A stretch of 63,922 bases of DNA, the filler included, from Asterionella formosa (Eukaryota): assembly GCA_002256025.1 (NCBI GenBank). It is 10 parts of 10 records of this genome, joined end to end, with 100 filler letters (N's around TTAATTAATTAA, not from the genome) between each part and the next. Parts side by side here need not be neighbours in the genome. Positions count along the whole stretch, not along the records: positions 3,294 to 28,653 come from NKIB01001986.1; 9 more parts are not named here. One strand, 5' to 3'. Shown piece after piece: positions 12,195 through 58,585 of the stretch (its first letter is position 1; every line of letters starts with the position of its first letter). Position numbers and translations under genes: made by a program. The notes under the pieces are model-generated. The model did not search any database. It had not been told where the DNA came from and worked only from the letters and a program-made list of their open reading frames with translations.

Positions 12195-13662
12195 ATGGTG
12201 CCTCAAAGATTTCCTCCACTAGTAGCGGTGGTGGTCATGTCCTTTCTTTTAATGGCTTCTCCATTGATGTCTTCCGCCTTTGTTTGCTTGACCAACTCAG
12301 CGTTGCCCCATCATCATCATCACACCACAACATCCTTCCCTAGCAGCTCAAGTAGTAGCACAAGTCTTGCCATGGTACTTGATGCCGCCATGGAAGCTCG
12401 CTTGGAAGGGATTCGCCGATCTTATAAAGGATTAACTGAACGTCTCGGTGATCCTGATGTTCTTGCTGATGCCAGTCTACTTCGACAAATCATGAGCGAT
12501 CGATCGGTATCAGAGGCAGCTGTCGTGGCATATGAAGAATACATGACCTACAAGGAAGAACTTGAAGGGGCTAAGGAGCTATTTCAAGAGGCAGGAGATG
12601 ATTCGGAAATGAGGGAAATGGCAAGATCGGAAATGAAGGAAATTGAGCCTAAGATGGAGGATTTAGAAAAACAGATTACTCTCCTATTACTACCAAAAGA
12701 CCCTAACGATAATAGAAACGTCATGCTGGAGATCAGAGCTGGAACGGGAGGATCAGAAGCCAACATTTTCGCTGGTAAGTCTTGAAAGATCTAGGGTGTT
12801 GATTACTACGTTCATGATGATGTGTGGAGAACTCGCATTTCTTGTAGAATAATAACTAACACGAAACTCGAAAGGCGACTTGTTGGATGTTTACCAAAAG
12901 TACATCCGAGACCAAGGATGGAAATCTTCCACGCTGGAATCTAGCTCTGGAGAAGATGGCGGTTATAAATCAGTGACCTTGCAAGTACAAGGCGACATGG
13001 TCTATAGCAAACTAAAGTGGGAAGCTGGTGTCCATCGAGTCCAGCGTGTACCAGCCACTGAGTCACAGGGACGGGTGCATACTTCGACAGCAACAGTCGC
13101 CATTATGCCCGAGGTTGATGAGGTAGATGTCAAGATTGACCCAAAGGATATTGAAATGACCACCTGCAGATCCGGAGGAGCTGGTGGTCAGAATGTGAAC
13201 AAGTAAGTGATCTTTCAACGTTGCAATAGCGTAGCACGTTTTGATCAAGGAAAACATTCTTGTGTGCCACTAACATTTTTATTTTTCAGGGTCGAGACCG
13301 CCATTGATCTCACTCACAAACCGACTGGAATACGTATCAAGTGTACCCAAGAACGTAGTCAATTGAAGAACAAGGATTTAGCCATGAAGATGTTGATGGC
13401 CAAGCTATACGACTTGGAAAACGAAAAGCGCGAGATGGAGGAGCGAGCGAAACGTGGCGAGCAGGTGGGCACTGGTGGACGAAGTGAAAAGATTAGAACC
13501 TACAACTGGAAAGACTCTCGCTGTTCGGACCATAGGTTGGGGCAGAACTTTCCCCTTGCCCAATTTCTGGGAGCAGACATTGGTCCTCTGCATGACGCAT
13601 GTATTGCTAAGGATCAAGAAGCCAAATTGGCTCAGTTAATGGAGGCCTCGTTGGCAAATTAA
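12195..13662 (+). CDS. prfA: Peptide chain release factor 1, plastid-targeted; exons 12195-12774, 12875-13202, 13290-13662
   Basis: [22 protein letters not shown] (PxT), [10 protein letters not shown] (GGQ), RSEKIRTYN; signal peptide + SSAF; introns with CTAAC branch points restore the frame. Confidence 0.95.
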
Positions 13663-13699
13663 GATTAGGTAAATATTCTTTTTATCTCCAATAAGTATT

Positions 13700-14014
13700 T
13701 TATGTAGGCTGGTCAGGTTTTCCTGTGACTCGCCCTTCAGATCTACGTTTCGAATTGCAGGCTTTGGAGCAAGTCGTAATCTCGTCCCAACTACGTTCCC
13801 ACTTTTTCCGCCAGGCAAATGGTCGGCCGCAGACGCAACACATTTTTTCAGGCAAATCGCTCTTGTTTATTCGTTCTTTTTCAACTTTCCCCCCACCTCT
13901 TTTCCCCAACAATACTATGGCACCATGAAAGTTTCGTTTGGGCACGAGAAATGATGCTTCAACTGTCGACAAGACAGCAACACTCGTGAAAAAGAGGAAT
14001 TTAAGTTGCGACAT
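13700..14014 (-). CDS. DUF2256-type small zinc-binding protein, probably plastid-targeted
   Basis: KSDLPEKMCCVCGRPFAWRKKWERSWDEITTCSKAC; signal peptide ending VEA-SF. Confidence 0.85.
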   Translation of the reverse strand: MSQLKFLFFTSVAVLSTVEASFLVPKRNFHGAIVLLGKRGGGKVEKERINKSDLPEKMCCVCGRPFAWRKKWERSWDEITTCSKACNSKRRSEGRVTGKPDQPT

Positions 14015-14377
14015 TCCCACCTTTCATCCAGTCTAATTGTCTTTTCATTCAAACTTTTCATTGCAATTTCAATGAAGATTGGCATTTACTTCCTCATCAT
14101 AAAATTGTTAGGTGTGATACGTACCGTATGGTGTATTGATGTTTCGCTCAACTGGTGTACGGATTACTCATCATGTATGCTGCGTCAGTCAAACTATAGG
14201 GGAAAACACTCATGTTTTGCAGTGCGTGTAAACAATGTTCTTTTTTTTGGTATGAATGTAATTATCGCTACCTATATGATGCATAGATATATCCCTCAGC
14301 CGCAATCGAAAGTTCAATAATCTTTACTTAAAAGTATTAGTTTAAAGAAGAGAATATTTGCCTGTTAGTCAGTGGTT

Positions 14378-14451
14378 GCCCGCTTAGCTCAGTTGGTTAG
14401 AGCATCTCATTCGTAATGAGAAGGTCCATGGTTCGAATCCGTGAGCAGGCT
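14378..14451 (+). tRNA. tRNA-Thr(CGT)
   Basis: Cloverleaf: GCCCGCT/AGCAGGC acceptor stem (one C-A mismatch), D arm GCTC/GAGC, anticodon stem TCTCA/TGAGA with loop TTCGTAA, T loop TTCGAAT. Confidence 0.93.
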
Positions 14452-14775
14452 TTAGACATTTGAACTACATTTTGTATCCACTTCTTTTTTTAAATTTTTT
14501 TCAATGTTTTGTACATCATCCTTCACAAATTTCAAATGTTCCTGCTCCTTTAAAAATGGTTACCATACTTTTCACACAATGCGACTGAGCATGTTTTGCA
14601 ACTGACAATGCCAGTGGCGTGACTTAACACTTTTATTTATTCAGTTTCAGAAAATTGAATTAGGCTAAATTTGGTATTCGGTACCATAATGCCTTTTGTT
14701 GTTGTTCATTGCTGTGGTATTGGCTTGAAATAGTTTTTCAAATTTTTTTCTCGCAGCTCAAGAGAAGTTTCAATG

Positions 14776-15837
14776 TCATCGATCCAAATATCTCTTTAAT
14801 AATGCCAGTGTATCATCTGGAGCTTCTGCATGTACCCAATGTCCTACTCCTCGAATCGTCGTTAACATGTGATTTGGAAAGTATCCTGCAATAGACTCCA
14901 TGTGCGCATGTCTCACAAAACGAGATTGGCCTCCATTGATAAACAGTGCGTCTCCCCTGTAGGTAATATCTGTCACGACTTCAAACCCAGCCAAGGTTTC
15001 TAACTCTTTCCCTATGCTGTTAATGTCAATTTTCCATCTTGGCACTTTGGGATCCAGGTTCGTCATCACGAAGGCACGAAGGGCTGGGTCAGGAATCTTT
15101 TCTTGTAATAGCTTATCGACATCTCGCTTAGATTGTCCTGGAACTAAAACAATATTTCGTAGCAAGTTAATAATCTCCATGACAGCTTTCCAAGATGGAT
15201 CATCGTGTTCGTAGGCAACCGGCGCAATGTCAATTACAACCAATCCAGCTATGCGATCTGGGTGGAGGAGAGCCAACGTTTGGGCAACTTTTCCACCCAT
15301 GGAATGTCCTACTAATACCACTTTTTTAAGTTGATGCTTATCGAGAGTACCAATCACGTCGAGTGCCATCTCTTCATATCTCATGGTGGGTCGCCAATCA
15401 TGGTGATTCTCTCCTTTGAAAGAAATTGTTAAGTCAGTTCGCAATACACAACATTTCATAATCACTGCGTGAAGCATACAACAATAATTTTTCTTACCGT
15501 GATTTCGTAGGTCCATGGCCAGTATCCTTCGTTTCTTGTCCAACTGGGAAGCTAAGGAAGCACCGATTGAAGCAAAGTTCCGTTTTGATCCAAGAAGGCC
15601 ATGAAGTAATAGTACTGCTGGCTCCGTAGAGTCAATGTGCGGTGAAAAATCAATCAGTTTTAGATCCACATACGTATTCATGGATCTCAACGATGTATCT
15701 CGGTTTCGGCGGGGATGGACAAGAAGGGCACTCGCCATTGTCAACCACAATAATGAGAAGACAATTATTGTCAGTTTGTTTGCAGGTGGATGTCCCGGCG
15801 ATGATCGCTTCATTGCAGTATTCTCAAATTGATTCAT
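14776..15837 (-). CDS. Alpha/beta hydrolase, ABHD11/YbfF-like; in-frame intron 15414-15497
   Basis: LLHGLLGSKRNF, DLRNHG, GHSMGG nucleophile elbow, DIAP, GHWVHAEAP. Confidence 0.9.
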   Translation of the reverse strand: MNQFENTAMKRSSPGHPPANKLTIIVFSLLWLTMASALLVHPRRNRDTSLRSMNTYVDLKLIDFSPHIDSTEPAVLLLHGLLGSKRNFASIGASLASQLDKKRRILAMDLRNHGKKNYCCMLHAVIMKCCVLRTDLTISFKGENHHDWRPTMRYEEMALDVIGTLDKHQLKKVVLVGHSMGGKVAQTLALLHPDRIAGLVVIDIAPVAYEHDDPSWKAVMEIINLLRNIVLVPGQSKRDVDKLLQEKIPDPALRAFVMTNLDPKVPRWKIDINSIGKELETLAGFEVVTDITYRGDALFINGGQSRFVRHAHMESIAGYFPNHMLTTIRGVGHWVHAEAPDDTLALLKRYLDR

Positions 15838-16639
15838 TAGCGCTCTTGATTCTGTTGCTATAGTTGTCTATGACTATCAGCAAGAGAAACCGCGGTTGTA
15901 AAAGAGAAATATCATGGTCAAGCATTAACTATATCATAACGATTCTTAAGGCCGATGTGAAACGCTATCATACATACCGTATATACCATACATGGGACAC
16001 AATATGTACTGGTAATAGAGGTAAGGAAGGTGAAATGAAGGTATACATATTTGTATATACCGGAAGTTATGTACTTGGTTGAGGCTACTGTGGTACCCTG
16101 GTACTCGTCCAAACATACGTCATTCAAAAAACACGTAAATTATATATGTATGTACGACCTGGCAGTACCTGGTACCTGGTACCAGGTACCAGATACCAGA
16201 TACCAGATACTGTGGAACTTGGAGCAAACTGAGGTCATACTATAAAAAGCTGATGTTGATAATTGTCTTGTGCAAGAATCTGATTCTATTCCGTATCCAT
16301 TAGGAGTTTCAAATCATTCCTTTGCCTTTTCTCATGCTCAAGCGTTTGATGAACAAGGTCATGAGGACCCTTAACATTTGTGAAATATAATTGCATACCT
16401 TGGGGGGGGGGGATGCAGCTGACAAAAAGACAGGTCCCATTGTACTACCATACAGACAAAATTTAGCAGCATGAAAATCGAAATTAAAATCAATGGGCAA
16501 GTCTTGGCCTCAAGGCCAACAAGCATGTGCACACATTTTACATTCACCATGTCTGGTGTGGATGAAATGTTGTGCCAGACAGCATCATTGGATTTCAGGA
16601 AGTTGTTATTGTTGATGACTTGACTGATGAAGTGGATAT

Positions 16640-16910
16640 GGCAATCACCCCTTTCTTTTTTAGTACTAACCTCCTGGTTGCAGGAACTTGTTTCACAAAA
16701 GACCATATTCCGATTTTATTGTCAAAGCTAATATCCCTGGTAGCGTTATATCTCAGTCTCGCAACAGCACCAAGAAACTTTTTTATATGTGGTTCTTTGT
16801 GATGAACATTCCTTTCCGGTGGCACCTTGTTGTCTTGACCTAGATATGTCATCGACGAAGCCTATGACAAAAAGTACCACTTCTCATCTTTATGAACATC
16901 ATCAAACTTA
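16640..16910 (-). mobile_element. Degenerate mariner-like (plant-type DD39D) transposase fragment
   Basis: Minus strand reads FDDVHKDEKWYF and H...HI.KFLGAVARLRY...FDNKIGIWSFVKQVPA, typical of this clade; frameshifted. Confidence 0.75.
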
Positions 16911-17527
16911 CCAGGATCGAATGGCTCATGATTCAGATCATCTGGAAGGTTCAATTGCAGCTGATTTATAGAATAAAACAGATGATTTCAGGCATTGCTT
17001 GCTGTCATTGATGGCTTAATGGCATTTGTATGAGGCTCAATTAAGCCTATCTCTTTCGAATTTGTATAATTGAGTACAGTACTAACAGGAAGAGCAAGCT
17101 TCTGAGCCAACTTGCAGTAAGTTCCTTGCCGGTATTGAGTATAAAGCTTCGTAAATACATACCGGTACCCGATATGCTGGGCAATTTCTACTACTGGGTA
17201 TTGTAGCACAAATTACCGTGCTGCTCTATAATTTATCCCACGTCGTCTCTACAAGACCGCAGCCATGACATGTGAAGAAGGGATTGCTTATTATACGAAA
17301 GATATCATGTTCTTACCCTAAAATTTTGATGTAAACAAAAAGCAAGACAAACAAACAATCCAATATTGTTTGATACTCGCACTATCTAAATAATATCAGG
17401 TAATAAATGGTACATGTATTGATGAATCATACCATCATTGCATCACTTATAGTTCCATCCTGCCATGACTGGGTAGCATCTCAGCAATACCACAATAATT
17501 CTCCGTGCTCATTTAGAGTCTCCAACC

Positions 17528-18340
17528 ATGAACGGCATGGTTCAAAATTCACGTAGTATCCTATTGGTGATCACATTCTTGTTTGTGAACTCAATTCAAG
17601 ATTCATTTGGCTTTCAGTTTCGATCCATGGCGTCAAATATTGTCGGCGTGAAATGCATTAAGACAATTTCAAGAAGGTCGTTTTCGCACAATTTTGTTCT
17701 TACTGGATTGCTCTCTGGGGGCTCCCTGATACAGAAGGAACAAGCGAAGGCCTCGTGGTTTGAAGGAAAAGAGAGGAGACAACTTGAGTTCTGTGTTGTG
17801 AATGTCCTCCGTGTCCTCTATTGGGCCGAAATAGAGTCGCGTAATTTGGAGCAAGCAGTGAATGACGGCAATGACAATATGAGGAAGGAGCTCTATGTGG
17901 AATCTAGACTCTCTGCGAAGGCACTGGTGACAGGAAAAATTGGGGGTGGTTCAACCAACCGAGTATATACATTGGCCAGTCTCAAGTTGCGTGACTGCCT
18001 TGATGATCTTGTGTTTTATTCAACTTCTTCGAGAGTACTATCAGGATTAAGTGAAGACCTGATTGAATCACTGGCATCATTAGTGGAGTTCGATGGTTTG
18101 GAAACGACAATCGACCCCTCGCCACGGTCCACTTTGATGTTGAAAATGTATAACAAGGATAAGGAAACCTTTGTTCGTCGAATGCTAAAAGACAGAATTA
18201 TACTGACTGCAAAGCAAATCGTTGGATCTGTAGATCCTGACGTACAAAGTCGTTGCGAAGCATACGTGCAAGCGACATATCCCAACGAAGTTCCGAAGAA
18301 GGCCCTTGTTGCAGTTGCTTCAACTCCTGGTTTTGCGTAA
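17528..18340 (+). CDS. Hypothetical protein with signal peptide + transit peptide + twin-Arg (thylakoid lumen-type) presequence
   Basis: 270-aa ORF; SFG-F cleavage-like site, ISRRSF, hydrophobic stretch, AKA cleavage motif. Confidence 0.7.
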   Translation: MNGMVQNSRSILLVITFLFVNSIQDSFGFQFRSMASNIVGVKCIKTISRRSFSHNFVLTGLLSGGSLIQKEQAKASWFEGKERRQLEFCVVNVLRVLYWAEIESRNLEQAVNDGNDNMRKELYVESRLSAKALVTGKIGGGSTNRVYTLASLKLRDCLDDLVFYSTSSRVLSGLSEDLIESLASLVEFDGLETTIDPSPRSTLMLKMYNKDKETFVRRMLKDRIILTAKQIVGSVDPDVQSRCEAYVQATYPNEVPKKALVAVASTPGFA

Positions 18341-18693
18341 GCACAGAACAGTTTTTTAAAGGCTTACACAAGCGTTGCCTTTGCGTTCTACTATTAGTCA
18401 TCAGATGTCGCAATAGTTATTTCGACGATGCCTATGTGGAGTCCTTCGCCGTAATACTTAGGTAAACTCCTCAAATTCGGCAATTTTTCAGAAAATTGTG
18501 ATCATTGAACAATAAAGCTCCATGGCCAAAGAGTTGATTGTTTTTTGAATTTCTCACTATTGTTGTTCGAGAACTGGTAAAGAATATTATAAAATTCCTA
18601 GATTCAAATATAACGAATGAATAGTAGATCCAGAAGTTTGCAAAGATTAATAAGATTGCATCAGATGATCACAGAACATGCGTGCAGGAAAGA

Positions 18694-21321
18694 CTACCAG
18701 GGCAGAAACTTCCTCCATCCTCGTTTTCCATCTAAAATGTTTCGAATCTCCTTAAGGGATTCTTGTGACTCTGGTTCCAGAAGGTAATCCTCAGTTATTT
18801 GGGCTAGTTTTGCAAGTTTTTCAGGATCAGTGCCGTCAATTGGAAAATTGTTCGAATTGGGCGATCCAATGTTGGGGTTCAAACGATAGTATCGAGTTGA
18901 CGAGAACGAGTTGTGGCCCCGAAATGTGCGGTCGCTGCCAAGAATATCTTCGAGGAGATGGTGAACGCGTTCAGCATCTGTCGCTGAATTCACAATTTGA
19001 GAAACAATCCCCTCCCATCCAAGTTTTGGGGCTTTCCTTTCTTCTTGAAAACCTAAAGCAAGATGAGTATCATGATGCCAGCTGTCACATGTAAAAAATC
19101 AGTTGCTTACCTCCAGTCCCAATAGAAACAACCAATTCGATAGGAATATCTGGGTAAACAGTTCGAGCTTCATGAATAGCGATTGCAGTAGGGTTACTTG
19201 CAACAATGCCACCGTCGCAATACATTTCTCCTGACATGAAAACCGGTTTGAATACAGTTGGCGCTGCCGTTGACGCACGCAGAGCATATCGTTGAAGGAC
19301 TCGAAAACTCCCTGTAAATGAAGGTGGGTGAGTGCATACACCCTAGACGCAGAAGCAGGTCGATTTCAAATAAAATACTCACCTGGATGTCGAGATCCCT
19401 TGTCGGTTAACCTCGATCCTTGAATGAATCGGTTTTCTTCAAAGATCTGATGTTTCGCGGATTTCGGCAATTGTTTGGTGAACTCCACTGGAAAACCTAA
19501 TTCAATTCTCGCTTGTTTAGCATCAACCACAAACGAATCCGGTATTTCGTCACTAGCATAGTTGTAGTTTCTATAACAGTTTCAAAACGGTTAGTATAGC
19601 CTCTACTTCCTTGTCATTAACGAAATTGTACTTACCGAAATAATGCCACATGTGTTGGGGTGGAGGACATTTTTGAGGAGACAGCAAATACTAGAGGTAC
19701 TGTTGGGTCCGCTCGGCTATCTAACATCGAATGATCACCCAATATTTCACTCATAATCTCCATGAAGGGTGCCTCGTCATCTGCAGAGTCGGATTCGTGT
19801 AAGCAGACAATTAAGTGATAACGAGCAAACGTAACATCCAAAGAACTACTTACACGACGCCGTTGTAAAAAAGTACATCATCGACGCCACAGCACTCTTG
19901 ACAAAGATTCGTTTGATCAGCGCATTGTATCTTTCTTTCGCTTTTCGACTCGTTTCCTTGCGGAGCCCAATCAAGAAGGCAATGATTGCACCAGTTGAAG
20001 TACCACAAATAATATCAAAGGTCTCACTTGCCTCTAAACCTCCCATGGCTTTCACAAGACCTCGCAAGGATGTGACTGCGGCCATGCCTCTGGTTCCTCC
20101 TCCGTCCAAACATAGTATACGCAACCCCTTTTGTCCTGGAATCTTGGGCACCCACTTGTTGACGCCCATGACAGCCAATACTTGGTTAGCTGTACCCTGT
20201 ACAGTTCCCTTCAGATCATCAGTTACTGAAGCCGCCTCAATAAAGGGTCTGCTACGATGTTCCTGTTTCTTACCACGCATTCGTGACTTCCAGAGTTCAA
20301 CGGGATAACGGATCCATCGTTTGGTTCTTTGTGGCAAGGCAAATGAGGATTGCTGTACGACTGCATCCTTGAGGCCTTCAGTCTCCCGCAAAACATCTAC
20401 AGCAACATCAGAAGCCATTGCCATGGCTAGCAGAAGTTGCAAGACATAGAGTTTGCATCGCTGTCGTGCTTCTGTGCGTTGTTTTCGCGAAAGCGGTGCC
20501 GCTTTGTCCTGCTCGGCTTCATCGGCACATTTCAAAATGGCAACGAAATCTCTCATTAATCGTCCATCCCATTCTGCATTTGCACGTAAAATTTCATCCG
20601 TAATGATCGCCACGATTTCAGGTGACAAAGCACACAAGTCTCGTATCGCCCGACAAGCCGCAGAAGAAAACGAGTGATCGGGTTCTCCGATACACTCAAA
20701 AAGGGGCCTGAGGCCACCTTGTTCTTGGCAAAAGAGACGCCATTCCCTTATTTCTGCAACATTGTTTGCAATACTGACAGCCAGATGACGAATATCTCGA
20801 CCAATACGATCCTTGTAATGTTCTGGTTGGCTTAAGCGAGGGAGCACCAACTCGCCCGAAAGTGGTGCATTGGGAGATGTGTACAATGATGGCACCGGCA
20901 AGACTTGTATGCCAGCCCTTAGTTGGTCTGGAATACCTGTGATATAAGTGACTGCAGCATCAAGCTCTCGGGCTGTTTCCTTATCCATGCTAGCAAGTTC
21001 TGATTGTTGTGAAACAGAAGTTGACTTTTGCTGCTTTCTGGGTTCATTTCCTACTTGTTGCAACGAAGGAGTGTCACTGTCCATCATGGCCTTTTGCATT
21101 TCAATTGCTTCTTGTTTCTGCAATCTCAACAGCATGCTTCCCAATGAGTCACTGGCCACGTTCAAGTCCCAATTGAGAGATTCGTCATCGCGATGTAATG
21201 AGGTGTTGGTTTCGACTGTAGCAAAGAGCCGTGTTCGTATCCTCGAAACTAGCATTCGTTGGCGTATCGGAGACAAGGCTCCAATGGAAGATAGGCCCAG
21301 AAAAAAGTGCAATAGCTTCAT
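18694..21321 (-). CDS. Patatin-like phospholipase (iPLA2-gamma/PNPLA8-like); exons 21321-19854, 19780-19636, 19570-19383, 19311-19111, 19052-18694
   Basis: LRILCLDGGGTRG, GTSTG, ASTAAPT, DGGIVASNP, YYRLNP; four GT-AG introns (73, 65, 71, 58 bp) keep the frame. Confidence 0.92.
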
Positions 21322-22022
21322 AATCTATAATCTATGTATGATTGATAGAATGTAGGTTCGATTCTGTGCGTTGTCGCCCGTGAAGTGACACAATTCGATC
21401 AGAGCAAAAACCCTTGCCAACAACCCCTGCAGATGCAACGGCAGGACCAAGGCCTTAGTAGCGCTTACGATGAGGAGTCACAATGAATCTTGTGGACCTA
21501 TCTCTTTCTTCTGAAGGGCAATCCTGTTGCTATTCGAGCCTTCCACCCATGTACCAAGCTTGTTTGATCCGAGTGTAATAATATGGGACTGTGATGATGT
21601 CGTATCATAAAAGGAATACCATACCGTTCATGATGTGATGGGAATCAGCGAAAGGAGCCATCATACGTATGTATACCAGGTACTGCAATACCGTACATAT
21701 TGTTACTGGTACCCTGGCAGTATTATTTGACAATCCTCATAATTACATAGTACCAGGTACCAGTACCTCGTACCTGGTACGACCCCTATTACCGGTACCT
21801 TTTAGCAGTAGCTGAAGAAGAACGCGGTTCAGTGACATGTATTGATGTCAGAGATGTGAAGAACCTGGAGCTGCAATGTTCACTCCCTGTCGTCAGAACG
21901 TTTCTGCCTTGCTGTTTGTGTTGTACATAGCTATCTCAAAAACTCGAGAGTGAGTTATTGACTCCGGGCTATATTGTCTACTGGTATCCCAGCTGAGCTA
22001 TAGTATACCGGTATCTAAAGTA

Positions 22023-23774
22023 CCTGCAAGTGGGCGGCAGTCATTTTGCTGAAATGGACAACGTGACGCAGGACAGGCGCTAAAAAAGACTAAATAGAGA
22101 ATGTCATCAAATCTCTCTTTGAGTCGACAGTATCATGACTACCGGTACCGGTAGTTAGTTACGTATATAATTATTTCGTCTAAAAATGGAAGCGAATGTC
22201 AAAACGAGGCAAATGGCTGAAAAATGAAAATGACAATGACTGGGGCAATAGAGGGGCAGCCCAAAGGAAAAGTAAGCAAAGCAACTCAAGCAAAAGTAAG
22301 AAAAAGCAAGCAAATCTTGCTAACATTGCTTTATTCTCTCCAAACACAAAATCATTCTCCTTTTCCAGCCGAAGTGATGAAAAAAAACCAATAATGAACA
22401 GTTCTATATCAATTCGGATTTGAAATATTTGCATGCTAGTAGCATCATCACATGTCACAACTAGCTAGTCATACCCGATATAACTAATATACCTGGTGGT
22501 GGCTGGCTGGACTCATGCTGCACAGGGTACCAGCTACCCAACAAGATAGCACTTGTAAGCGCTTGTATATAATAATTTAGCTTAGATTATTTGATCCTTT
22601 GCTATACTACACTACAATATATTTACCGGTATGGCACTAGTGCAAATTAACTGTGTAGTCATCATGAGCGGCTGGAGTATGCATGGTGCATCATGTTGTC
22701 TCAGCCTTGACCATGACAAAATCAACAAATATCTCCATGAAAAATGAGAGCAATGATTTGCTATTGGGTACATGCACATATTAAGCACGATATACAAAAT
22801 TCAATCAAACACGAATAGTTGTAATAACTCTAATATTGGCATCGAAAATTGAAATAGCCAATCGCGCATTTTTTTATGATTAATTTATAGATTCACAGTT
22901 AAAACGATGATACTATCAGCAGATTTCACACTTTCACATTAGCTGTACAACGACTAGCTACAAAGACGACTAAACAATAACATGATTAATTAAAGCAAAT
23001 GATGTGAAAGAAGTTATTTATTAGCTTAGATTTGATTGCTTGAATAGACGCCGCAAAATGGAGTCATTGTGAAGATGGGAATGATGGAAGCGTGATGGTC
23101 ACGAGATTTCAAAATTGTTTGCTTACCAGTAAGTACCCTGGTACCGGAATACTATTGTCTTCATTATACTGGTACCATATTTGTACTCCTAGTCAACAGT
23201 CGATACAGTACTGGTACCGGTATAAGGGTAAATAAAATCAGGATTGGTATACTACAGTATTATCTTCATTATAGTCGACAGTCGGCAGATGTAGTGTATA
23301 GTGTATAGTATACATGCATACATAACTTGCGTATGTACTGAAAAAACATACTGTTGGTCTATAATAGTTATATCGGGTCATTGCTAGAATGATGATGCTG
23401 GCAGTTACGAATTTCCAATCCCAATGACTCTGAAAACCGTTTATTAAGATAGGTTGTTTTCATCACTTCGGCCAGAAAAGGAGAACGATTTTGAGTTTGG
23501 AGAGAATAAAGCAACATAAGCAAGACTTGCTTACTTTTGCTTCCTATTGCTTACTTTTGCTTCGGGCCACCCCTCAATTGCCCCAGTCATTGTTGTGTTT
23601 TCTTGATGTTTCCCTATTTTGAAAAAAAATTAGCAAAAAACCTAGTACATCACTAAGTGGTGATCACCATGCATACAGACGATTTTAAAGAGTGAATTTG
23701 ATATGTTTAAATGTAAATAAACGCCTGTCCTGCGTCACGTTATCAATTTCAGCGAAATGACCGCAATTTGCTGG
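22023..23774. mobile_element. Non-autonomous TIR (foldback-like) element of ~1.75 kb with ~400-bp imperfect inverted arms, flanked by TA
   Basis: 22040-22080 is the inverse of 23722-23762, and 22230-22390 is the inverse of 23450-23595. Termini TA|CCTGCAAG...ATTTGCTGG|TA match the MITE family. Confidence 0.8.
22668..22945 (+). repeat. Dispersed repeat, second copy at about 38622-38905
   Basis: Shared gcatcatg.tgtctcagccttgacc, ctccatg.aaaatga, gaaaattgaa...gccaat.gcgcatt in the same order. Confidence 0.8.
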
Positions 23775-24889
23775 TAGCTAAATGCAACCAAACTTTACTA
23801 ATCATTCTCGGCCTAACAAGCAACCCTTCCTTCTTAAAAATTATTCCGAACTAAATGGTGTACATAATATGTTCTACGTAGTCTAGAATCAGGTGAACCT
23901 GACCTCGATTAATTTTTAACAAGGCGAATCGCGCACCGATTGGAATGTTTGTTGCTCTGGACCCCCAATTTTCGTTGACCGTTCGTTAGTGAATAACAGC
24001 GACAAGCAATAAATTGCCGATTGGCTCCTCGTTTCGCAACCTCAAGCAAGAGGGAGGCTGATGAGACCATCGACATAGATGGCCAGCTCGTCATAAATCC
24101 AGGCGTGTACAAAACTTTAGCTATCATATTATTGGACGTCAATAGAACGAAATATGTTTTGTCCAGAAATTCATGCTTGTTATTTAATTGCTCTATCCCT
24201 TTGGTAGTAATTGCCAATATTAAACACACACATACAGTTCAGCACGCTGGCAAACGAAAATCAAGAGCCCTTAACAAACCACATGTATCGCTACTTAGCG
24301 TTATGCTCGCCAAAATATACTAATCTAACCGACACACCCATCGCCTGCATCGTCTCGCGTAAAAATGTACTCGGAGTATATAGCTTCTTCAAAGGGCTTC
24401 TTTGAAGGAAATGGATTGAGCCGGGTTAGTCGCTGAACGTGTTGCAACTATACATGGCTGAACAGAGAGAGTACTAACTGCATAACGGTACTCCTAAGTA
24501 TGGAGTACCGGTACCAGGGTTCTACCTGGTTACCAGGTAACCCTGGTACAGAGTAAGGACATTGCTTACCGCGCCGGAAAATAACTCGTGACTGAAATTT
24601 TATCCCGAAAACCATCCTCCTTGGCCGTTCCCTGCTGCGTCGGAAACTTAATTTTTCCGGGTTTTGATTTCCTGAAACTCAATTTTTTTCTGTCACGTCG
24701 GCAAATTCGTCGATTTTCCCGACACTGACGATTTTAGTCGGAAACTTTAGTCACGTTTGGGAAATTGATTTCAGGAATGGCTGTCCTGCTTGTCTTCTCA
24801 CTCAATGCAAGGGAAAATAGAAGGCACCAACGCTTGCCTTTCAAGTCATTGCTTAACATACAAAGAAAGTTCTATCTGTTTCAAATGTC

Positions 24890-25500
24890 CATTTTGGTTG
24901 TGATAATGACAAAACCATAGCAAGATTCCGTTTTCAAAAACTTAAAAAATCATGCAAGCATTTGGAGCAACATTGTCTGGGAGTACTATAAACAAGATGG
25001 AACTGTTGGAATTGAGAAGGGTTTCTATTTTATTTGTAAGAGAAGATATCATATATGGCTCACCTGATAGCTCCCTGCAAGCATCAGCTCGATGATTCAG
25101 CTAAAGGGATTTGGAGGAGCCAATTATCTGGAATTGGCAAGAAAAGATGTGGAATATTTCTTTGGCATTCTTAAGAAGAGGTTCATGATCCTCAAGAATC
25201 AAATGCGGCTACACAACAGTAAATAAATTAGGATTATTATTATTACTTGCTGCTGTATTTACAATATTTTGATTTTATATGATGGGTATGATGACTGGAA
25301 AGAATGATTGGCGATGATAATGTTGAAAATGCAGTTGATGGAGTGAATGATGAAGATGGTCTCCCAAGAGAAACAAATGAGGGTGGATCTGACTGATACA
25401 CAAGACATGAGCATCGTATGGCTCAAGCTTTAGAAAACAATAATACAGAGTTTGCTGTTGGCAATGATTTTGATGTTGATAATTTGGAAGATACTATTGA
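24890..25500 (+). mobile_element. PIF/Harbinger (DDE_Tnp_4) transposase pseudogene
   Basis: Fragments NDKTI, GFYFIC, RKDVEYFFGILKKRFMILKN.MRLH, TCCCIYNIL...DGYDDW with stops and frameshifts. Confidence 0.8.
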
Positions 25501-25548
25501 TGCCCTGGTACCATGATATGTACGACCGGGGTCCGAGGTAGTACCAGG

Positions 25549-25756
25549 TGAGCGATATTGCGCATCAATACAGATGTATATAGGGTTAGTGTTATATCAT
25601 ATATATCAGAACTAAATACCAGGTAATGAAAGAACTCGACTAACCCTCCTTATTCTTGTATACTTTGGTGTCGACTTTGAGAATGAGTTGCACAGAAGGA
25701 TTAACTAAAAAGCTCATATATTCAACAAATACTACTACTTCTAGTTAGATACTTCA
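25549..25756 (+). mobile_element. Solo LTR copy 2 (TG...CA) with 5-bp TSD CCAGG
   Basis: gta-CCAGG-TGAGCG...ACTTCA-CCAGG-tac; high similarity to copies 1 and 3. Confidence 0.9.
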
Positions 25757-25929
25757 CCAGGTACCCGGTACTAATGGAAAACGTCAAATAGGAATTCCTG
25801 GAGCGCCCGATTTATGAGTGCAAAAATCAAATGCAAACACAACAATCACCCATCACAATACCAACATCATGACCTCGAAAGCGCCTTGACAAGGCAATGC
25901 CTTGCCTCGAAAGAAATTTATCTCCTGAA

Positions 25930-27633
25930 GAGTTGGTCAGTGTTCAGATTTGTCTTAACAATGTGATTAGGGAGCTAGAAGCTTGGCCTAGATCTGTTTG
26001 CTGCTTGGGAAGGAGAAGATGAAAAAATACATGGCAGCAGAGCAAAGGGATAACGATATCCACAAGGACCAGTCTGTGATGTGGAAGGGAAACAGTTGCC
26101 TACATACTGCTGTGTGTCGGAAAACGGCTCAATCACTGCAGAGCTTCTGGTTGGCATGCTAAAGCACATGGATGACTCTGGCATCTTTCCTCGAAACAAC
26201 GGGCCCCCACCATTCCTAATACTTTATGGACATGGGTCTTGATTTGACATTTTGTTCCTTGAATACATAAACAATCCAGTACACAAATGGACAGTCTGTT
26301 TTGGTGTTCCTTATGGTACAAGCTACTGGCAGGTTGGAGACAGTAGTGAGCAAAACGGTTGCTTCAAAATAAACATCACAACAGAAAAACGCAAATTGCT
26401 CACCTTAAAAGCAGATCACAGGCAAGAGCTTAAAATTAACAAGGTCGACATTGTTGGACTGGTGAATACGGCATGGGACAATTCCATTGCAAATATTGTC
26501 ACAAACAAGAAAGCAATTTATGAACAAGGATGGTGTCCCCTGAACTATAATGTCTTGCTTCACCCTGAGATTCAACTAACCCTATGCGCCCACAGAGACT
26601 GCCACTCTCCCTCCTGATGATTTAAACCTCCAAACTGGCTTTGCTGGAACAATTGTTGGAAGAATTAACGAGTTTTGTTAACGCAAGGATGTGCGAAATG
26701 GAATCGACCGGGAGGCCCAAGCTAGAAAGAGAAAGGAGACAGCGGATTCACACATTCTTGAGGGACACAAAAATCGGATAACAGCAGGACTACTGGCCTC
26801 TGCACAAGCCTTTGCCCTTGGGCCAAATATTCTTGCTGCTACACTGGAACTGAAGCGAATTTCAGACATTCTCATTAGTACAAAAGAAACAAAAAGGCAT
26901 CAAGAATTCAATACACTTCGCGGAAAAGTACTTACATTGAAGGAACAGAACAAAAAAAGAACAGATGTCTGTGCCAGAATTGAAATTAATGGTGCGTTGG
27001 TACAAACAATCAGGTGATTTGCCGGTTCCACAAACAAGGCAAGCTCTGATTACAAGATTCGACAACACCAATCACCGTGGTGACCAGCAGCCGCCATTCC
27101 CTCTCCATACACCTCCTAGTATTTCTGTGGTTGTTGTTACTGCACCTCCTCCTGTTGCTATTCCCTCTCCTTCTACAACTGCTACTGCCGATCCACCATT
27201 CCGTGATGAAGTTTGAGACTCCGCAAGCAAGTAATTGTTGGATGCAAAGAAGCTTGAGATTAATGTAATGCATTAGAAGAATTCTCCGACGATGATGCTG
27301 CCCTGTAAAAGTGTAAAACGTAAAGTAATAAGAAAATAATTTTTGTAGTATTAACGGAGTAAAAATAAACATGGTTTGGGGGGAAAATATATACATGTAC
27401 ACATAAAAAAATATGTACTGTAAGCCACCGCTATGCAATAATCTTAGTGACTTTGGAAAAATTATTTCTTCATGGCTACATACACTGAATCAAAACTGAT
27501 TCCTGAATAGTATAGCAGAGAGCATTGTCTAACATAAGCTTTGTACTTGCGTCAAGTTTTGATCGTTGAATTACATAAATATTTTTAGTCGAAAGATAGA
27601 GTAAAATAACGGTGGCTTACAGTTTTTAAGTGG
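25930..27633 (+). mobile_element. pogo/Tc1-mariner (DDE_1) transposon remnant with intact right end
   Basis: SENGSITAELL..ML, PFLILYGHGS*F, GVPYGTSYWQVGDSSEQNG motifs. The end carries inverted ACTGTAAGCCACCG sites (27417-27430, 27610-27623) and terminates ...TTAAGTGG|TA. Confidence 0.82.
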
Positions 27634-28304
27634 TACCTACCAGGTACTAGGGTAGCAGGAAGTGATGGCGCGCAACGGTGTGGAACCGTGGTACCTGTGC
27701 GAGGTTGCGATAAAATAGAAATTTAGCTATTTTTTCCTTATAGTAAGAACCGTCTCTAACAGCAACTTTCTTGGCAGGCAGGAGGTGATATGTAGTATAC
27801 CTGGTATGAGGGTAATACGTACCTGGTACCACGTACTAGGTACCAGTACCATGAGTACACATTATCACCGTATGTGGTACCAGTACTCAGTAGCTCAGTA
27901 GTATGGTGACGACGAATTCTTGGTCTCCCTGACGATCGTTCAAACGCAACACAACATGACTACCTTTAGTACGGAATTGGTGCACTCTACACGTGAATAC
28001 TATATTGCTAATTGTACTCAAATCATTTAGTATTGACTGCACACCAACAACGCCGGTGTATTTTCTTCGCCAAGCAGGGTGTTCTTGTTCTTTGCATCAA
28101 GGTCGCTGTTCTCGTTCTATTCCTGAACTACTGCGCAATTTGAGCTGAATATCATTCAACAACCCTATCACAGGAAGTTCAGTGAAAGCGTTGAATTGAA
28201 GGAAACAAAGTGTAGAACGAAACAACCGTCGGGGTTTGGTTAGAAGAACCTTGCTTCATGGTACATCAGTGCATTGCTTGTATTTCACTGCACTACACGC
28301 GATA

Positions 28305-28653: not shown

Positions 28654-28826
28654 NNNNNNNNNNNNNNNNNNNNNNNNNNNNNNNNNNNNNNNNNNNNTTA
28701 ATTAATTAANNNNNNNNNNNNNNNNNNNNNNNNNNNNNNNNNNNNNNNNNNNNGGGGGCAATCTTTGGTTGATTCGTTCAGTTCATGGAAAGAGAATCAT
28801 AGAAGAACCGAACGTCATTGGGAGTG

Positions 28827-30155: not shown

Positions 30156-30399
30156 CACATAGTGTTACTTAAAAGGCACAACTAATTGTTAGTTAATCTC
30201 TACATGCATCGTCTTGCAGTTTGATAATGTCGTCAGTTGACAGCGGATTTGCGTCAGCTGCGAAGATTCTGCAGCAACGACTTGGCACACACTGCCACAN
30301 NNNNNNNNNNNNNNNNNNNNNNNNNNNNNNNNNNNNNNNNNNNTTAATTAATTAANNNNNNNNNNNNNNNNNNNNNNNNNNNNNNNNNNNNNNNNNNNN

Positions 30400-31399: not shown

Positions 31400-32198
31400 A
31401 TAGCAACTCATCAGATGATTATCACGTCTGCCTTTTCCACAAGATGCATTTTCAACTGCCGGTAAGAAGAGACAATGCAAAGAAAAGTCGACACAGGGGA
31501 GGAAGATCCAAGGTTAGCAAGTCTTCAAATGTTATTCAATTATTTTTAATCTAAAACTTTTATATCGGAAACATTGACATTTAACCAGCAATGTAATTGA
31601 ATGTAATCCAATTAATTTGCAACCCATCTCTGTAAAGTCTCTTTAGAATGCTTGATCGAATTCTGCAAATAAACGATCCAGAGAGAACAAGATAAAATTT
31701 CAGGTAGCAGAACTCCAAAACTAGAATTTTCACGACACAATGACGAACAGCCTTGGAAGTAACTTCGCGGTGATCATGACGTTGTACCTGGTTATTTCAT
31801 TACCTAATATAGTCATAGTAAGACGCGAGAGTTGGTTCCAAAGTAGTAGACTGCGAATGATTCCAGACGAAGTTGTTGGGCACTTCCTGCATTTCAGTTT
31901 TGGGATCAGCAGAACATCGTTTCGCCCTTCAAATCACCTGTCNNNNNNNNNNNNNNNNNNNNNNNNNNNNNNNNNNNNNNNNNNNNTTAATTAATTAANN
32001 NNNNNNNNNNNNNNNNNNNNNNNNNNNNNNNNNNNNNNNNNNCCACCAACACCAATTTCGGAAATGAGACGGCTACCACTGGAACGTGGCATGATTTTGT
32101 CTTATAATAGTTGGCTGGTGTTGCTGTTTTTATGGCAGGTTGATTCGTTAGATTGTGTAAAAATAAAAAATATTTTTATCATTCATGCCACCTCATTT

Positions 32199-32864: not shown

Positions 32865-33048
32865 TATATATTTATTGAATTCGAAAAGGAATCTATGTAT
32901 GTACGCGCAAATTTCCAGTGATTCAAATATTTCAATTGGAATCACGTTATTCAAAATTAACTCATAAAAATTCTTAGTTCCAGGGAATTTCGGCAACCCT
33001 AAGCAATATTTTAATTTTTGCCTAGGGGTTCAAATGCAGGAACCTTAA
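32865..33048 (-). mobile_element. Putative Kolobok-like terminus (TTAA|GGTTCCTGC...); second copy at about 42840-42979
   Basis: gtacgcgcaaatttcca...tccagggaatttcggcaacc...ttcaaatgcaggaacctta is shared by both copies, and similarity stops at TTAA. Confidence 0.6.
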
Positions 33049-33251
33049 AGGTTTATTTTATTTTATCGTAGATTAAAGCAAAGTGACCACAAAGCAATTG
33101 CTGGAAAAACCAGTCCAGTACCTGGTAACACTGGTATCAGAGGTACATGAACTGTACGAGTTTCCTCTGTGAGGGATGTAATGCAGTTTCAAACACAAAT
33201 GCGACATGACGACCACAACAATATATTTTATGTTATATACCGGTAGACCAA

Positions 33252-33343
33252 CAAGTTGCGGTAATTTTGCTTAAACAAACAATTTAATATGGGATAAAGA
33301 TAGCTAAGCTTTTAGTTTCAGCAAAATTACAGCAACTTGCAGG
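33252..33343. mobile_element. ~90-bp MITE (TIR CAAGTTGCGGTMATTTTGCT); other copies at 34308-34394, 52440-52516, 57747-57842
   Basis: caagttgcggtaattttgct...agcaaaattacagcaacttg; conserved interior aatttaat.tgggataaagatagctaa in all four copies, in both orientations; intact ends read GCAACTTGCAGG|TA. Confidence 0.85.
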
Positions 33344-35328
33344 TACCAGGTACTGTGGCTGTACATACTACATACATATGATCACATGCAATGGAATTGA
33401 TTATCAGCCATATGCATCATTAGCCAACATTACCGGTATATTACAAACTACCGCTGTGATGCGCACCATTTGCTGTCTGCGTGTCGATGTTTGTCGGACG
33501 GACACAATTAAATCGGACGTGATTCCAGCTCTAACGATGGCAACCACTCCATCCCGCAAACGCGTCGCGGACGGCGCATCCACNNNNNNNNNNNNNNNNN
33601 NNNNNNNNNNNNNNNNNNNNNNNNNNNTTAATTAATTAANNNNNNNNNNNNNNNNNNNNNNNNNNNNNNNNNNNNNNNNNNNNGACTGCCGGAGCGCGAG
33701 TCCCAGCCAGAGCTCCTTCTCTGAGGTCGCACAAGGCAGCACGAGTACGCTCATTGGCCAAGACGGACAGGGGCTGGGGACCTTTCAGAGGAAAGGCAGG
33801 CTTCCCCGCGCCAGTCCCCAAGTCGCCCAGACTGCTGCTGATATCGACTTGCGCGGCCATGAGGGGGGGAGGCAAAAGCGAGTTGTTCCGCTCGCAGGCT
33901 GAGTCCCCGGGAGGTTGCTCGAACGTGGGGTCGCTTGTAGAGGCGGTGGTCATTGTGTGAGAGCACTCGGTCAATCGAAGGGATGGAGGAGAGAACGAAG
34001 AGTGTGATTTTAGTGTACCTGGTACAATTTATGGAAATGACAATTACATTTTTGAGACATGTATCATTCCCAGCAATTCCACTCACAGATTTAAACGGTT
34101 TCTTTACGTGCGTTTCATCCAGTCGTACGCATGAGAGCAAGATACTGCTAATTCATTTATTCGAATGACATACGGAACTCAATCTTGACCATCTCTTTTT
34201 GAGGTTACTTCGTTTTCTTTGTAGGTTTTCAAAATGTGAAGACATGTCCCGACGTGATGGAGTTCCGCACTGTGTAGCAATGACCGAATGATCGAAGGGC
34301 TGACGTAGCGGTAATTTTGCTGAATCAAAGATTTAGATACCTTTATCCCAGATTAAATTGTTTATTTAAGCAAACTAACGGTACCACAACTTGCTAGTGG
34401 TCAAGTTGTGAGTCATGGTGGGTCCGCCAGCGGCAGGAGTCCGTTCGGTGAATACCGGCATGTCGAGATGTACAGGACATACAGGCAACAGCTGGAAAAA
34501 ATATTAGAGTACCAGGAGGTCCTGGTACCGGAACTGATGCTGGTCCTGCAACCAGTGCCAGGGCAGCTTTACCGGTACCTGGTACCAGGTACCAGGGTAC
34601 CAGTACCAGGTACGCACCGTTGTACAGAAGGCTTGGAGTAACAGGTACCGGTACTTGGGAGGCGAGGCAAGATCAGCCATTTTTTTTTCAATACCAGGAA
34701 GCCAATACCTTGCAGGAGATACCAGAGGTGCCTCAAGATGACAACCTTTCTTCTGATATCTTTGTCACAGCACTCTCATCAACAGCTTCATGTGGCATCA
34801 CCACCACAACAGGCACATCCTGGCGCATTTCCAGTACGGGGATCAAGAATCACTCCACAGCATGATTCCTTTTTGAATGGTGACAATGATTTTGCCACCC
34901 ATGAGATTCAGAAGTGAACAAGGCCAGCTGGAACCTGCAACACTATTCAATGCTGAACTTGTGGTTGATTCCGAACTTGCCAGCAGTGCCTCTCTTGTTG
35001 ACGTTGAAGCAGAAGAAACAGCCCAATGTCAACGTCAAGTGAAGACTGCTTTGTTAATATTTTTGGTAATTGACATCTTCGTTTCCATCCCAATTCAGCT
35101 AAAAAAAAACATCACTCAAAACATTGGCTCCATCAGAAACTCCATCAGTAAGCCCATCTCAAAGTTTGTTTGGATTCTTGGCTGAACATTCATTTGATAA
35201 CGGAACAGCACTTTCAACTACTGGCTCCNNNNNNNNNNNNNNNNNNNNNNNNNNNNNNNNNNNNNNNNNNNNTTAATTAATTAANNNNNNNNNNNNNNNN
35301 NNNNNNNNNNNNNNNNNNNNNNNNNNNN

Positions 35329-36422
35329 TACATGGTCATGCTAATTGGTCGCTGGAAATCGGACGCATTTCTAATTTACATCCGTAAGCAAGTGGCGGAA
35401 TTTACGAAGTCAGTTAGCCAAAAGATGATCACGACAACGACATTCTTCCATCCGCCGGCAAATACAATAGCATTCACATCTCGATCGACAATGGCAGGGC
35501 GAGACGCGCATGCCACGGCTCATCTAACATAATTCGTCGTGACTAGAAAGTGGATCGGCAAAGCGCAACTCGACTGCCGCAGAACCCGGAGATTGGATCC
35601 GCATTTTGAACCCGGATTTTGGAAAAGGGACACGTTTACTTAGCACCGAATTCAAAAACCATTTATGCTACTTCTACTTAGTATTTCTGGCTCGCTATTC
35701 TAGTATTTGATGGGTCGATTTTATATATTGCAGCTAAGTACCCACAAAGCTAGTACTACACAGACTACATATGGAGAAAGACGAAACGGACGAGACGGTA
35801 ATTGTGTCGAAGTTACTTCGTTGATATTACGGACAAGGACGGACGCGATGGAGTTAGTATATCAGGCGAGCACCGGATGATACAAACCACGCGACGCGAA
35901 TCGAAGGAGTCGAAGCTGAGAATTCAATATAGCGACAACGCGACTATTAAGTTCTAGCTTTTAGAGTTGAATCGAACAACCAAGAGTCGGCAGCTAAGAC
36001 AAGGGAAGACAAGAGCAACCACGCGAGGTTAAACAAGTGAATTAGTGCAAGGGCGAAGCACACAATTCTTTGAATAACGATTCAGAGAAGCAGTCTAAAG
36101 CATCGCCAAGCCTTTCGCAATTTATAGTCTAAAATCACCCACCCTACGTCCCTCCCACGGCAAAGCGCAACTCGACTGCCGCAGAACCCGGAGATTGGAT
36201 CCGCATTTTGAACCCGGATTTTGGAAAAGGGACACGTTTACTTAGCACCGAATTCAAAAACCATTTATGCTACTTCTACTTAGTATTTCTGGCTCGCTAT
36301 TCTAGTATTTGATGGGTCGATTTTATATATTGCAGCTAAGTACCCACAAAGCTAGTACTACACAGACTACATATGGAGAAAGACGAAACGGACGAGACGG
36401 TAATTGTGTCGAAGTTACTTCG
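35329..36422 (+). mobile_element. Tyrosine-recombinase retrotransposon (Ngaro/DIRS group) 3' end: YR C-terminus plus split direct repeats
   Basis: MLIGRWKSDAFLIYIR (catalytic Tyr motif) ends at 35532; 265-bp direct repeats at 35556-35820 and 36158-36422 flank a 337-bp spacer. Confidence 0.82.
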
Positions 36423-36973
36423 ATATGTTCAATTTAACTAGGAAAAGGATGCCATGTACCGACGCCTTACGCCATCAATACTTCCGAACAGATTTCAGAG
36501 CTAAGTGTTAGTCGAACTAATCAAACGAATGGGATAAAACAGTGGGTCAATGCAGTTTTTTTCGGGTACCTGGTACCAGGTACCAGCATTCATCATCGGC
36601 AGTCTCTTGCTTTGATCGCGATCAACATCACACAAAATCGAACAAGTGCTATCACGGAATGAACCGGTCACCCTGATTCACCTTCTGTGCAACAACAGCT
36701 TAAAATATGAGACGCTATTCCATATTTTGCGCTGCTCCGAGAGGGAGGCGTTTGGCAGCTCCCGGTTGGTATCGATTACCCACTTCGATGCGCCAATTGT
36801 CAGTCATTTTGCCTTCAACCCCGCTGTTCGAAGTTCCGCCCAGCTCGATATGTTCCATCCGGCAGCGACGCTANNNNNNNNNNNNNNNNNNNNNNNNNNN
36901 NNNNNNNNNNNNNNNNNTTAATTAATTAANNNNNNNNNNNNNNNNNNNNNNNNNNNNNNNNNNNNNNNNNNNN

Positions 36974-38905: not shown

Positions 38906-39436
38906 CAGCATGCTACACTACTATGGTAATCTGTAGGTCGAATGAAATATTGTTTGATTCTCTATTTAAGTCATGTCGATTAATAGTCCATTGTTGGGTT
39001 CGACTCCCACACTCCTTACCATCCTGCATGCTCTTGCTTGCTTGGTGTGCAAGAAATAGTGTGTTTCCCCTTTATAAGCAGCTTGTGACGCCTTCTAGGT
39101 GATCAGAGTTTCCCCTAATGATGTGGTTAAGATGATCACCTTTTACAAAAGGTGGTTGGGGACTTACCTATGCTAACAAACAAGGGAAGCACACCAGGTC
39201 TTGTCAGTAGGTAGAACAATGAATACTTACCTTGAAAAAGGGGAGGTTGAATGGGCTACTATGAAACAGATTATCATGTTATTTCACATAACTTGGTAAG
39301 CATCTCAACATGCAATGAAGGCCATTTGTTCATTGTGAGTGCATCGAAACTGAAACGGTGCGAATAAAATGGGTGCTACCGAATGTTCCAGGTTTACCAG
39401 GTCGTACTGAGTACCGGTACCTGGTTGAGTACAAGG

Positions 39437-39633
39437 TGAGCAATCTTGCGCATCAATACAGATGTATATAGGGTTAGTGTTATATCATATATATCAGAAC
39501 TCAATAATGAGAGAATTCGACTAACCCTTATATTGCATACGTTGATGTCGACTTAGAGAACGAGTTGTACAAAAGGATTAACTAATAAGCTCATATATTC
39601 AACAAATACTACTATTTCTAGTTAGATACTTCA
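39437..39633 (+). mobile_element. Solo LTR copy 3 (TG...CA) with 5-bp TSD CAAGG
   Basis: gta-CAAGG-TGAGCA...ACTTCA-CAAGG-tac. Confidence 0.9.
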
Positions 39634-58540: not shown

Positions 58541-58548
58541 GGGGGGGG

Positions 58549-58585
<37 letters not shown>

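Follow-up and report, generated by a model that had tools for sequence, protein, structure and literature searches.

TA-bounded palindromic words upstream of genes in Asterionella formosa: probable transposon excision scars and a retroelement that may target them

TA-bounded words and where they lie

The stretch of DNA analyzed here (hereafter the window, always at its full length) comprises 63,922 bases of the diatom Asterionella formosa (assembly GCA_002256025.1). It consists of ten contigs, two of about 25.3 kb (3294-28653 and 36974-62278) and eight of about 1.5 kb, joined by nine identical linkers (N44-TTAATTAATTAA-N44), and is not one molecule. Its intergenic DNA is dotted with short words bounded by TA on both sides, mainly TACCGGTA and TACCWGGTA (W being A or T), which occur singly or in stacks and are called units below. 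These units, a family of TA-flanked inverted-repeat elements that may be their source, and a long terminal repeat (LTR) retroelement that sits in them are the subject of this study. Genes were located with a rough map based on the open reading frames (ORFs) of the two long contigs. Intervals or genes read across a linker are artefacts and, since adjacency over linkers is unreal, positional statistics were limited to these two contigs. The linkers and the most conspicuous groups of units are as follows.

1548-1647, 3194-3293, 28654-28753, 30300-30399, 31943-32042, 33584-33683, 35229-35328, 36874-36973 and 62279-62378: linkers, with stop codons in all six frames
11808-11830: stack of three units in the promoter region shared by the divergent ORFs 10235-11530 (-) and 12138-13662 (+)
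16166-16207: stack of CCTGG, CCTGG and CCAGG followed by TACCAGA three times, the run of this mutated unit lying at 16187-16207
34570-34612: longest stack, with five kinds among its six units (CCGG, CCTGG, CCAGG, CCAGGG, CCAG, CCAGG)
53647-53832: about nine separate units, clustered upstream of the OCD/mu-crystallin-family ORF at 54299
57513-57950: unit cluster, including two stacks of two units each, upstream of the AAA ATPase ORF 55715-57454 (-)

Word counts were compared with those of 200 dinucleotide-preserving shuffles of the window. TACCWGGTA was found 40 times (shuffle mean 0.32, maximum 3) and TACCGGTA 31 times (mean 0.34, maximum 3), so that the two main words exceeded the shuffles by about 90- to 125-fold, and GGTACC was found 74 times (mean 7.29, maximum 14). 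A census of TA-X-TA words in which X was not preselected pointed to the same set: the outliers were CCGG (31), CCTGG (25), CCAGG (15), CTGG (13), CCAG (6), and ACGG (5), together with TA-ATTAAT-TA (9), which is the contig linker. The pair TA-CCG/CGG-TA was counted 10 times versus 2.96 in shuffles. This enrichment is a real and strongly non-random feature of the window. Tandem Repeats Finder reported period-7 arrays of 2.7-6.6 copies at the places named by the original prediction, and the arrays cited there were confirmed where checked (among them 86-101, 5557-5578, 7758-7773, 11808-11830, 16166-16188, 34570-34612, 52565-52588, 57843-57858, and 57935-57950). Units were also present in an independently assembled metagenome contig (L002), and unit-bearing stretches of the window were covered by long contigs of other runs, which makes an assembly artefact unlikely. 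Scans of viral contigs with an array word and with an LTR word gave 0 matches each, and the literature returned by a search mentioned neither these words nor an accumulation of footprints in diatoms.

Units were concentrated near gene starts. Intergenic DNA touching at least one gene start (25.1 kb) held 75 core units, or 3.0 per kb, whereas intergenic DNA between two gene ends (2.96 kb) held none versus 8.8 expected (Poisson P = 1.4e-4); the figure of 2.96 kb is an upper bound, because the patatin ORF looks truncated and part of 18341-19845 may be coding. ORFs, which occupy 21.4 kb of the two long contigs, contained 2 of 77 core units (64 expected). The claim that the arrays do not occur inside coding regions was thus nearly right, with 8 of 96 chains overlapping ORFs of at least 120 aa (37% of the window). 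Measured to the nearest downstream ORF start, the distances peaked at 200-400 bases (24 units), with 10 units at 0-200 and 12 at 400-600 bases. Such positions are compatible with insertion into accessible promoter DNA, and equally with a functional element.

Comparisons between copies of repeats allowed single events to be recognized. The copies compared in the window sit on different contigs of one assembly, and at all three events listed here the empty copies have TA and the filled copies TA-X-TA.

25617-25625: TA-CCAGG-TA, 7 bases inserted at a TA of solo LTR copy 2, from the LTR alignment
42879-42886: TA-ACGG-TA, with a plain TA in the sister repeat (32901-32998)
34305-34399 (-): decayed copy of a miniature inverted-repeat transposable element (MITE), with a private TA-ACGG-TA insert at 34376-34383

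The event at 25617 is the clearest. Copy 2 reads AATA-CCAGG-TAAT and copies 1 and 3 read AATAAT, exactly as the original prediction had described. The insert was missing from 12 of 13 aligned LTR copies, including all ten copies from metagenome contigs, and the insert-free form was also read at contig ends of run X1 that run into this spot (78 and 33 contigs). Given the 12 copies without it, the alignment identifies the 7 bases as a derived gain at a TA. At 42879 the difference from the sister near 32927 was likewise found, and the direction of change is not fixed by two copies. The MITE at 34376 reads CTAACGGTACC where three sisters read TTACC; the insert, which had been claimed, is thus present in one of four copies, with a net difference of only 5 bases, from which we infer a 6-base insert plus a 1-base loss. 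In total, three TA-bounded units were found among the 11 listed gaps of at least 5 bases in repeat pairs of the window, and neither the 25617 nor the 42879 insertion site has a local CCWGG template.

The public sequencing runs that contain the stretch are mostly labelled as freshwater metagenomes. Contig pieces of runs X1, X2, X3, and X7 were compared with 8000-27999, which yielded mostly high-copy repeats. The 12 small indels listed, out of 94, all lay in repeats and none in single-copy intergenic DNA. A long piece of run X3 spanned the unit-bearing 14398-16190 with 7 differences and no gaps.

The variants of the words point to their age. Single-mismatch variants of TACCGGTA numbered 56 versus 16.8 expected. 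Among these, 19 were TACTGGTA/TACCAGTA, the CpG transition, for which shuffles gave 1.3 (e.g., at 16007, 21704, 23167, 38241, and 46686). CpG was observed at 0.72-0.77 of expectation, in ORFs and non-coding DNA alike, and TG/CA at 1.23-1.27, which hints at CpG hypermutability and possibly methylation. Because the CpG transition makes up 19 of the 56 variants and CpG is in deficit, words of the TA-CTGG/CCAG-TA class look like aged TACCGGTA and probably do not represent a separate footprint. The excess of the other one-mismatch variants gave an estimate of about 7-11% change per site, comparable with the 12% by which LTR copies 2 and 3 differ. Units therefore look like DNA of some age that decays freely, and this speaks against the word being under strong selection.

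A candidate source family and a retroelement lodged in the units

The window contains a TA-flanked family whose terminal inverted repeat, CCWGCAAGTTGCGG, was matched six times in addition to the left end of a 1.75-kb element (0.23 in shuffles). The members with intact ends are the following.

22023-23774 (+): 1.75-kb TA-flanked element with terminal inverted repeats, left end CCTGCAAGTGGGCGG, right end CCAGCAAATTGCGG on the other strand, without a transposase ORF
33246-33343 (+): MITE of about 100 bases, with an intact right end ...GCAGG; its TA (33344-33345) is common to the unit TACCAGGTA at 33344-33352
57755-57842 (-): MITE with the intact end CCTGCAAGTTGCGG; its TA (57843-57844) is common to the array 57843-57858

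Four family ends are intact, three reading TA-CCT (22021, 33345, and 57844) and one TA-CCA (23776), so the CCT and CCA element ends beside TA that had been claimed are real. The 1.75-kb element has one end of each kind, CCT and CCA. At 33344 and 57843, two of the four intact ends share their TA with a unit, while 4.7% of the 3,887 TAs of the window border one (P = 0.012). The proposed match between footprints and terminal inverted repeats holds in so far as the inner letters of the words are those of the resident CCT/CCA ends; excision itself was not seen. The putative superfamily assignment of this family comes from its TA flanks and inverted repeats, and no transposase domain that would bear out the label "pogo-like" was found among 28 different ORFs of the window. 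The 1.75-kb element also has subterminal inverted repeats of about 190 bases (22233-22426 and 23411-23593, 76% identity), and its body holds several units (22140-22153, 22624, and 23124-23222). A search for TA-flanked inverted-repeat pairs with any ends gave 47 hits, nearly all of them trivial matches of array on array, and one real pair (22332/23508) inside this same element. The possibility that CCT/AGG at the MITE ends is a split target word was rejected, as the two sides form no consistent duplication.

Another MITE-like repeat of about 215 bases occurs at 27386-27652 and, inverted, at 57929-58200, with ends CTGTAAGCCACCG...CGGTGGCTTACAG and 80% identity between copies. Both copies precede the same unit array, and the two arrays differ by a 3-base TGG indel.

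The repeat that carries the 25617 insert proved to be a true LTR of about 210 bases (TGAGCGATCTTGCG... family), with TG...CA ends and a 5-base target duplication. Its copies in the window are listed below.

3294-3481 (-): LTR copy 1, cut by the contig start, with a CCWGG-TA junction at 3482-3488
25549-25756 (+): solo LTR copy 2, TG...CA, with CCAGG on both sides (25544-25548 and 25757-25761) and TA on each outer side
39437-39633 (+): solo LTR copy 3, with CAAGG on both sides, inside TA...TA (39432-39638)

The CAAGG on both sides of copy 3 shows that this LTR inserted into a unit that already existed, and was already mutated, before its arrival. Six 5' junctions could be read (three in the window and those of contigs L002, L006, and L010), and five of them had TA-C(C/A)WGG directly before the TG of the LTR. 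The chance frequency of this junction word is 0.00105 per site, which for five of six gives P ~8e-15; the sixth junction, in L002, reads CTTGG inside the ORF of another element. This suggests that the retroelement integrates sequence-specifically into the words, at the exact middle of the unit. An alternative in which the CCWGG at the LTR flanks represents the inverted-repeat ends of a mariner-like MITE was rejected, since copy 3 has CAAGG as a direct repeat and there are full elements that include an interior.

Metagenome contigs gave further information on this high-copy retroelement. In run X1, 116 contigs carry the repeat at one LTR position. Across ten metagenome loci, a purine-rich ...GGGAGAG precedes the LTR in 7 and CTTTGAATTC... 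follows it in 8, seven of the latter with one common interior. Contigs L001, L003-L005, and L007-L009 read interior, LTR, interior, an order to be expected from tandem or circular forms, or from assemblers that collapse the two LTRs. ORFs of the interior are short and broken, despite 96-99.7% identity of the copies to their consensus. Its integrase signal is weak (a rve_3 match with an E-value of 0.012, below the cut-off), and Pfam found neither reverse transcriptase nor integrase in 28 different ORFs of the window.

Origin of the units

The reading that we favor, with a probability of roughly 0.65, is that TA-CCGG-TA and TA-CC(A/T)GG-TA are excision scars of a cut-and-paste transposon family of the Tc1/mariner/pogo kind, which targets TA and has CCT/CCA ends. 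In the original prediction, the units were interpreted as stacked transposon footprints; as an account of their origin this is now the best-supported reading, on indirect evidence, while the build-up of arrays by doubling of TA alone proved too weak. According to PMC6943129, Tc1/mariner transposases cut the non-transferred strand at a position a few bases into the element, after which end joining leaves a footprint consisting of TA, the first or last 2-4 element bases, and TA, such as the TAC(A/T)GTA of Sleeping Beauty. Applied to the family found here, an element would enter a TA and duplicate it, and at excision the transposase would cut the non-transferred strand 2-3 bases inside each end, leaving the flanks with TA plus CC or CCW as a 3' overhang. 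End joining of the two-base remnants CC and GG would give TACCGGTA, and CCT and CCA overhangs pairing through their terminal base would give CC-W-GG, i.e., TACCWGGTA. Each event would thus lengthen the site by 6 or 7 bases and supply an additional TA. Insertions would fall mostly 200-400 bases upstream of ORF starts, and would hit earlier scars or their flanks more often than by chance, producing mixed stacks such as (GGTACCW)n to which replication slippage would sometimes add. Scars would then decay like neutral DNA, with the CpG of CCGG lost first to give TACTGGTA and TACCAGTA, and the separate LTR retroelement family would recognize the scar and integrate across its central CCWGG.

Excision scars would explain why the words are bounded by TA, which letters lie between, and why W is ambiguous, and also why stacks are mixed, why repeats carry private inserts, why elements abut units, and why the words decay. 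The words resemble known Tc1/mariner footprints in being bounded by duplicated TA and in having inner letters that equal the end bases of an inverted-repeat element with TA flanks resident in the window. Likewise, the central W is similar to the A/T of the Sleeping Beauty footprint, and the shorter variants fit trimming of the ends. On the other hand, CC(W)GG requires either a 2+2 joint or 3-base overhangs that overlap by one base, unlike the full overlap in Sleeping Beauty. Moreover, known footprints are single marks at the donor site, whereas those proposed here, known from sequence alone, are fixed, stacked, and present at about 3 per kb of promoter-bearing DNA. Stowaway-type MITEs are mobilized by Tc1/mariner or pogo transposases. 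The elements described above are similar to them in being short (about 100 bases, one of 1.75 kb), TA-flanked, non-coding, and near genes, with terminal inverted repeats; they differ in that no partner transposase was found in the window.

The stacks require more than the doubling of TA. In the window, 103 units form 80 chains, 65 of which are single units, and there are 23 adjacent pairs. According to the original prediction, each footprint doubles the TA target and arrays follow from this. We simulated sequential insertion at random TAs, each event adding a TA, in bins that kept the observed local numbers. These simulations gave 12.8 +/- 2.6 adjacent pairs with 100-base bins and fewer in wider bins, and none of 2000 reached 23, which is about twice the outcome of random choice among TAs. 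The proposed mechanism is thus too weak alone. Neighbors were identical in 6 of the 23 pairs versus 4.3-5.4 in permutations (P = 0.25-0.46), and stacks mix units of 6, 7, and 8 bases in mixed orientation. Since neighbors are no more alike than by chance, re-entry at old scars is favored over slippage, which is not the main extra force behind the stacks. The stacks are better read as a preference of new events for old scars or the DNA right beside them, to which some slippage adds; the three TACCAGA at 16187-16207 show slippage of a mutated unit. The order of W in neighboring 7-base units (TT 4, TA 5, AT 1, AA 0) was also considered and dropped, being not clearly different from chance.

Several observations weigh against an origin by excision. 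The candidate source is modest, with just 4 of 7 family ends intact and about 5 extant copies versus 103 units, and Pfam found no transposase in 31 ORF submissions from the window (28 different ORFs). No site was seen with the element in one copy or strain and a scar in another. As for the words themselves, the 3+3 joint TACCWWGGTA expected from full retention was not among the enriched TA-X-TA words, and TA-ACGG-TA (5 copies) is not expected from CCW ends. The 42879 event rests on two copies, and a 6-base deletion would fit it too. Stacking exceeds what TA doubling predicts, so that the preference for old scars enters as an extra assumption, and the model gives no explanation of why 7-base units are stacked in 24 of 40 cases versus 9 of 31 for 6-base units. 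Finally, the eight young interiors of the LTR element on metagenome contigs (96-99.7% identity to their own consensus) have 6 private indel entries of at least 3 bases, representing 4 different indels, and none is a TA-bounded unit. Indels of these young copies are either uninformative or mildly against ongoing activity in such DNA.

Some of these points would be better explained if the stereotyped insertions at TA came from another process, such as a different transposon family (e.g., with CCG ends) or templated insertion linked to repair. TA-ACGG-TA (5) and TA-CCG/CGG-TA (10 versus 2.96) do not follow from CCW ends, and both the lack of a transposase among the ORFs of the window and the few copies of the candidate family speak in the same direction. 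Nevertheless, the CCT/CCA ends match CC(W)GG exactly, two of four intact ends abut units, and the insertion sites are without a local CCWGG template, which leaves such a process unlikely. Selection would enter if the words were a promoter-proximal cis-element or a chromatin-shaping sequence that is maintained; however they arose, their abundance and location would then be due to function rather than to past transposon activity. The strong position bias, with 75 units near gene starts versus none between gene ends and the peak 200-400 bases upstream, is what such an element would show, as is the palindromic form of the words, which recalls dimeric binding sites. Yet the half-sites TACC and GGTA occur at spacings 0 and 1 in similar numbers (31 and 40), so the spacing is not fixed, and no extended motif flanks the single TACCGGTA units. 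Private copies inside an LTR and a MITE, and a mismatch spectrum of free decay led by CpG loss, without resistance to decay, also argue against maintenance by selection. A process inserting 6-7 bases at TA would be needed anyway, and we regard the cis-element as quite improbable.

The period-7 arrays of 2.7-6.6 copies, the three TACCAGA in a row, and the stacking above random-TA expectation could also suggest ordinary 7-base minisatellites grown by replication slippage, with the single units as decayed or seeded remnants. The stacks do share with such minisatellites a tandem 7-base periodicity and one run of a repeated mutated unit. They differ from them in that most units are single (65 of 80 chains), stacks are heterogeneous, mixing 6-, 7-, and 8-base units, and neighbor identity is at chance level; single units also occur at naive TA sites in repeat copies. 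Slippage as the origin of the arrays is accordingly very improbable.

Targeted integration is known from other LTR retrotransposons. Tf1 integrates at promoters, Ty3 at Pol III starts, and retroviral integrases have a weak palindromic target consensus. Similar to these, the LTR element described here has TG...CA ends, a 5-base target duplication, and insertions upstream of genes, and its target is palindromic and centered on the duplicated bases. It differs in that the target is a specific 9-base word, TA-CCWGG-TA (five of six junctions), as opposed to the site of a tethering protein or a weak consensus, and in that this word is itself probably the scar of another transposon. A bolder version of the excision reading, which we put forward tentatively and consider doubtful, is a self-reinforcing "scar ratchet" in which the family re-enters its own footprints upstream of genes, writing palindromic (GGTACCW)n tracts into most promoters, and the LTR retroelement evolved to use the scars as a sequence-specific landing pad, duplicating CCWGG. 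If so, the debris of one transposon would be the safe haven of another, and may shape promoter chromatin.

Excision footprints are textbook knowledge as single marks at donor sites. What we describe is most likely this known mechanism, Tc1/mariner-type footprints, at an unusual density and with unusual consequences, namely stacks in promoters and a retroelement that targets scars. Footprints would then appear to be a major and datable component of promoter-proximal diatom DNA, at about 3 per kb. They would be a readable record of where a transposon family landed over time and a source of new TA targets and palindromes, and another mobile element, unrelated to the first, apparently uses them as its specific site of integration. 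Should such targeting prove to be genome-wide, it would offer a simple, sequence-defined model of how retroelements find harmless sites in compact genomes. For this organism, which lacks chromatin data, the scars could also act as a proxy by which accessible promoter DNA is mapped.

Other features of the window

One of the 1.5-kb contigs contains a perfect 265-base direct repeat (35556-35820 and 36158-36422, 602 bases apart), which is either a very recent tandem duplication or else an assembly artefact. The AAA ATPase ORF at 55715-57511 (-) has diatom proteins as its best named matches. Two paralogous gene pairs on the minus strand (49447-51336 and 59019-61394) have 71-78% identity; they comprise an ORF similar to gametolysin M11 and another that carries PT-type repeats along with internal tandem repeats of 24, 36, and 60 bases. 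Upstream of the ORF ending at 59019, about 50 bases (58541-58590) form a G run of 91% purity.

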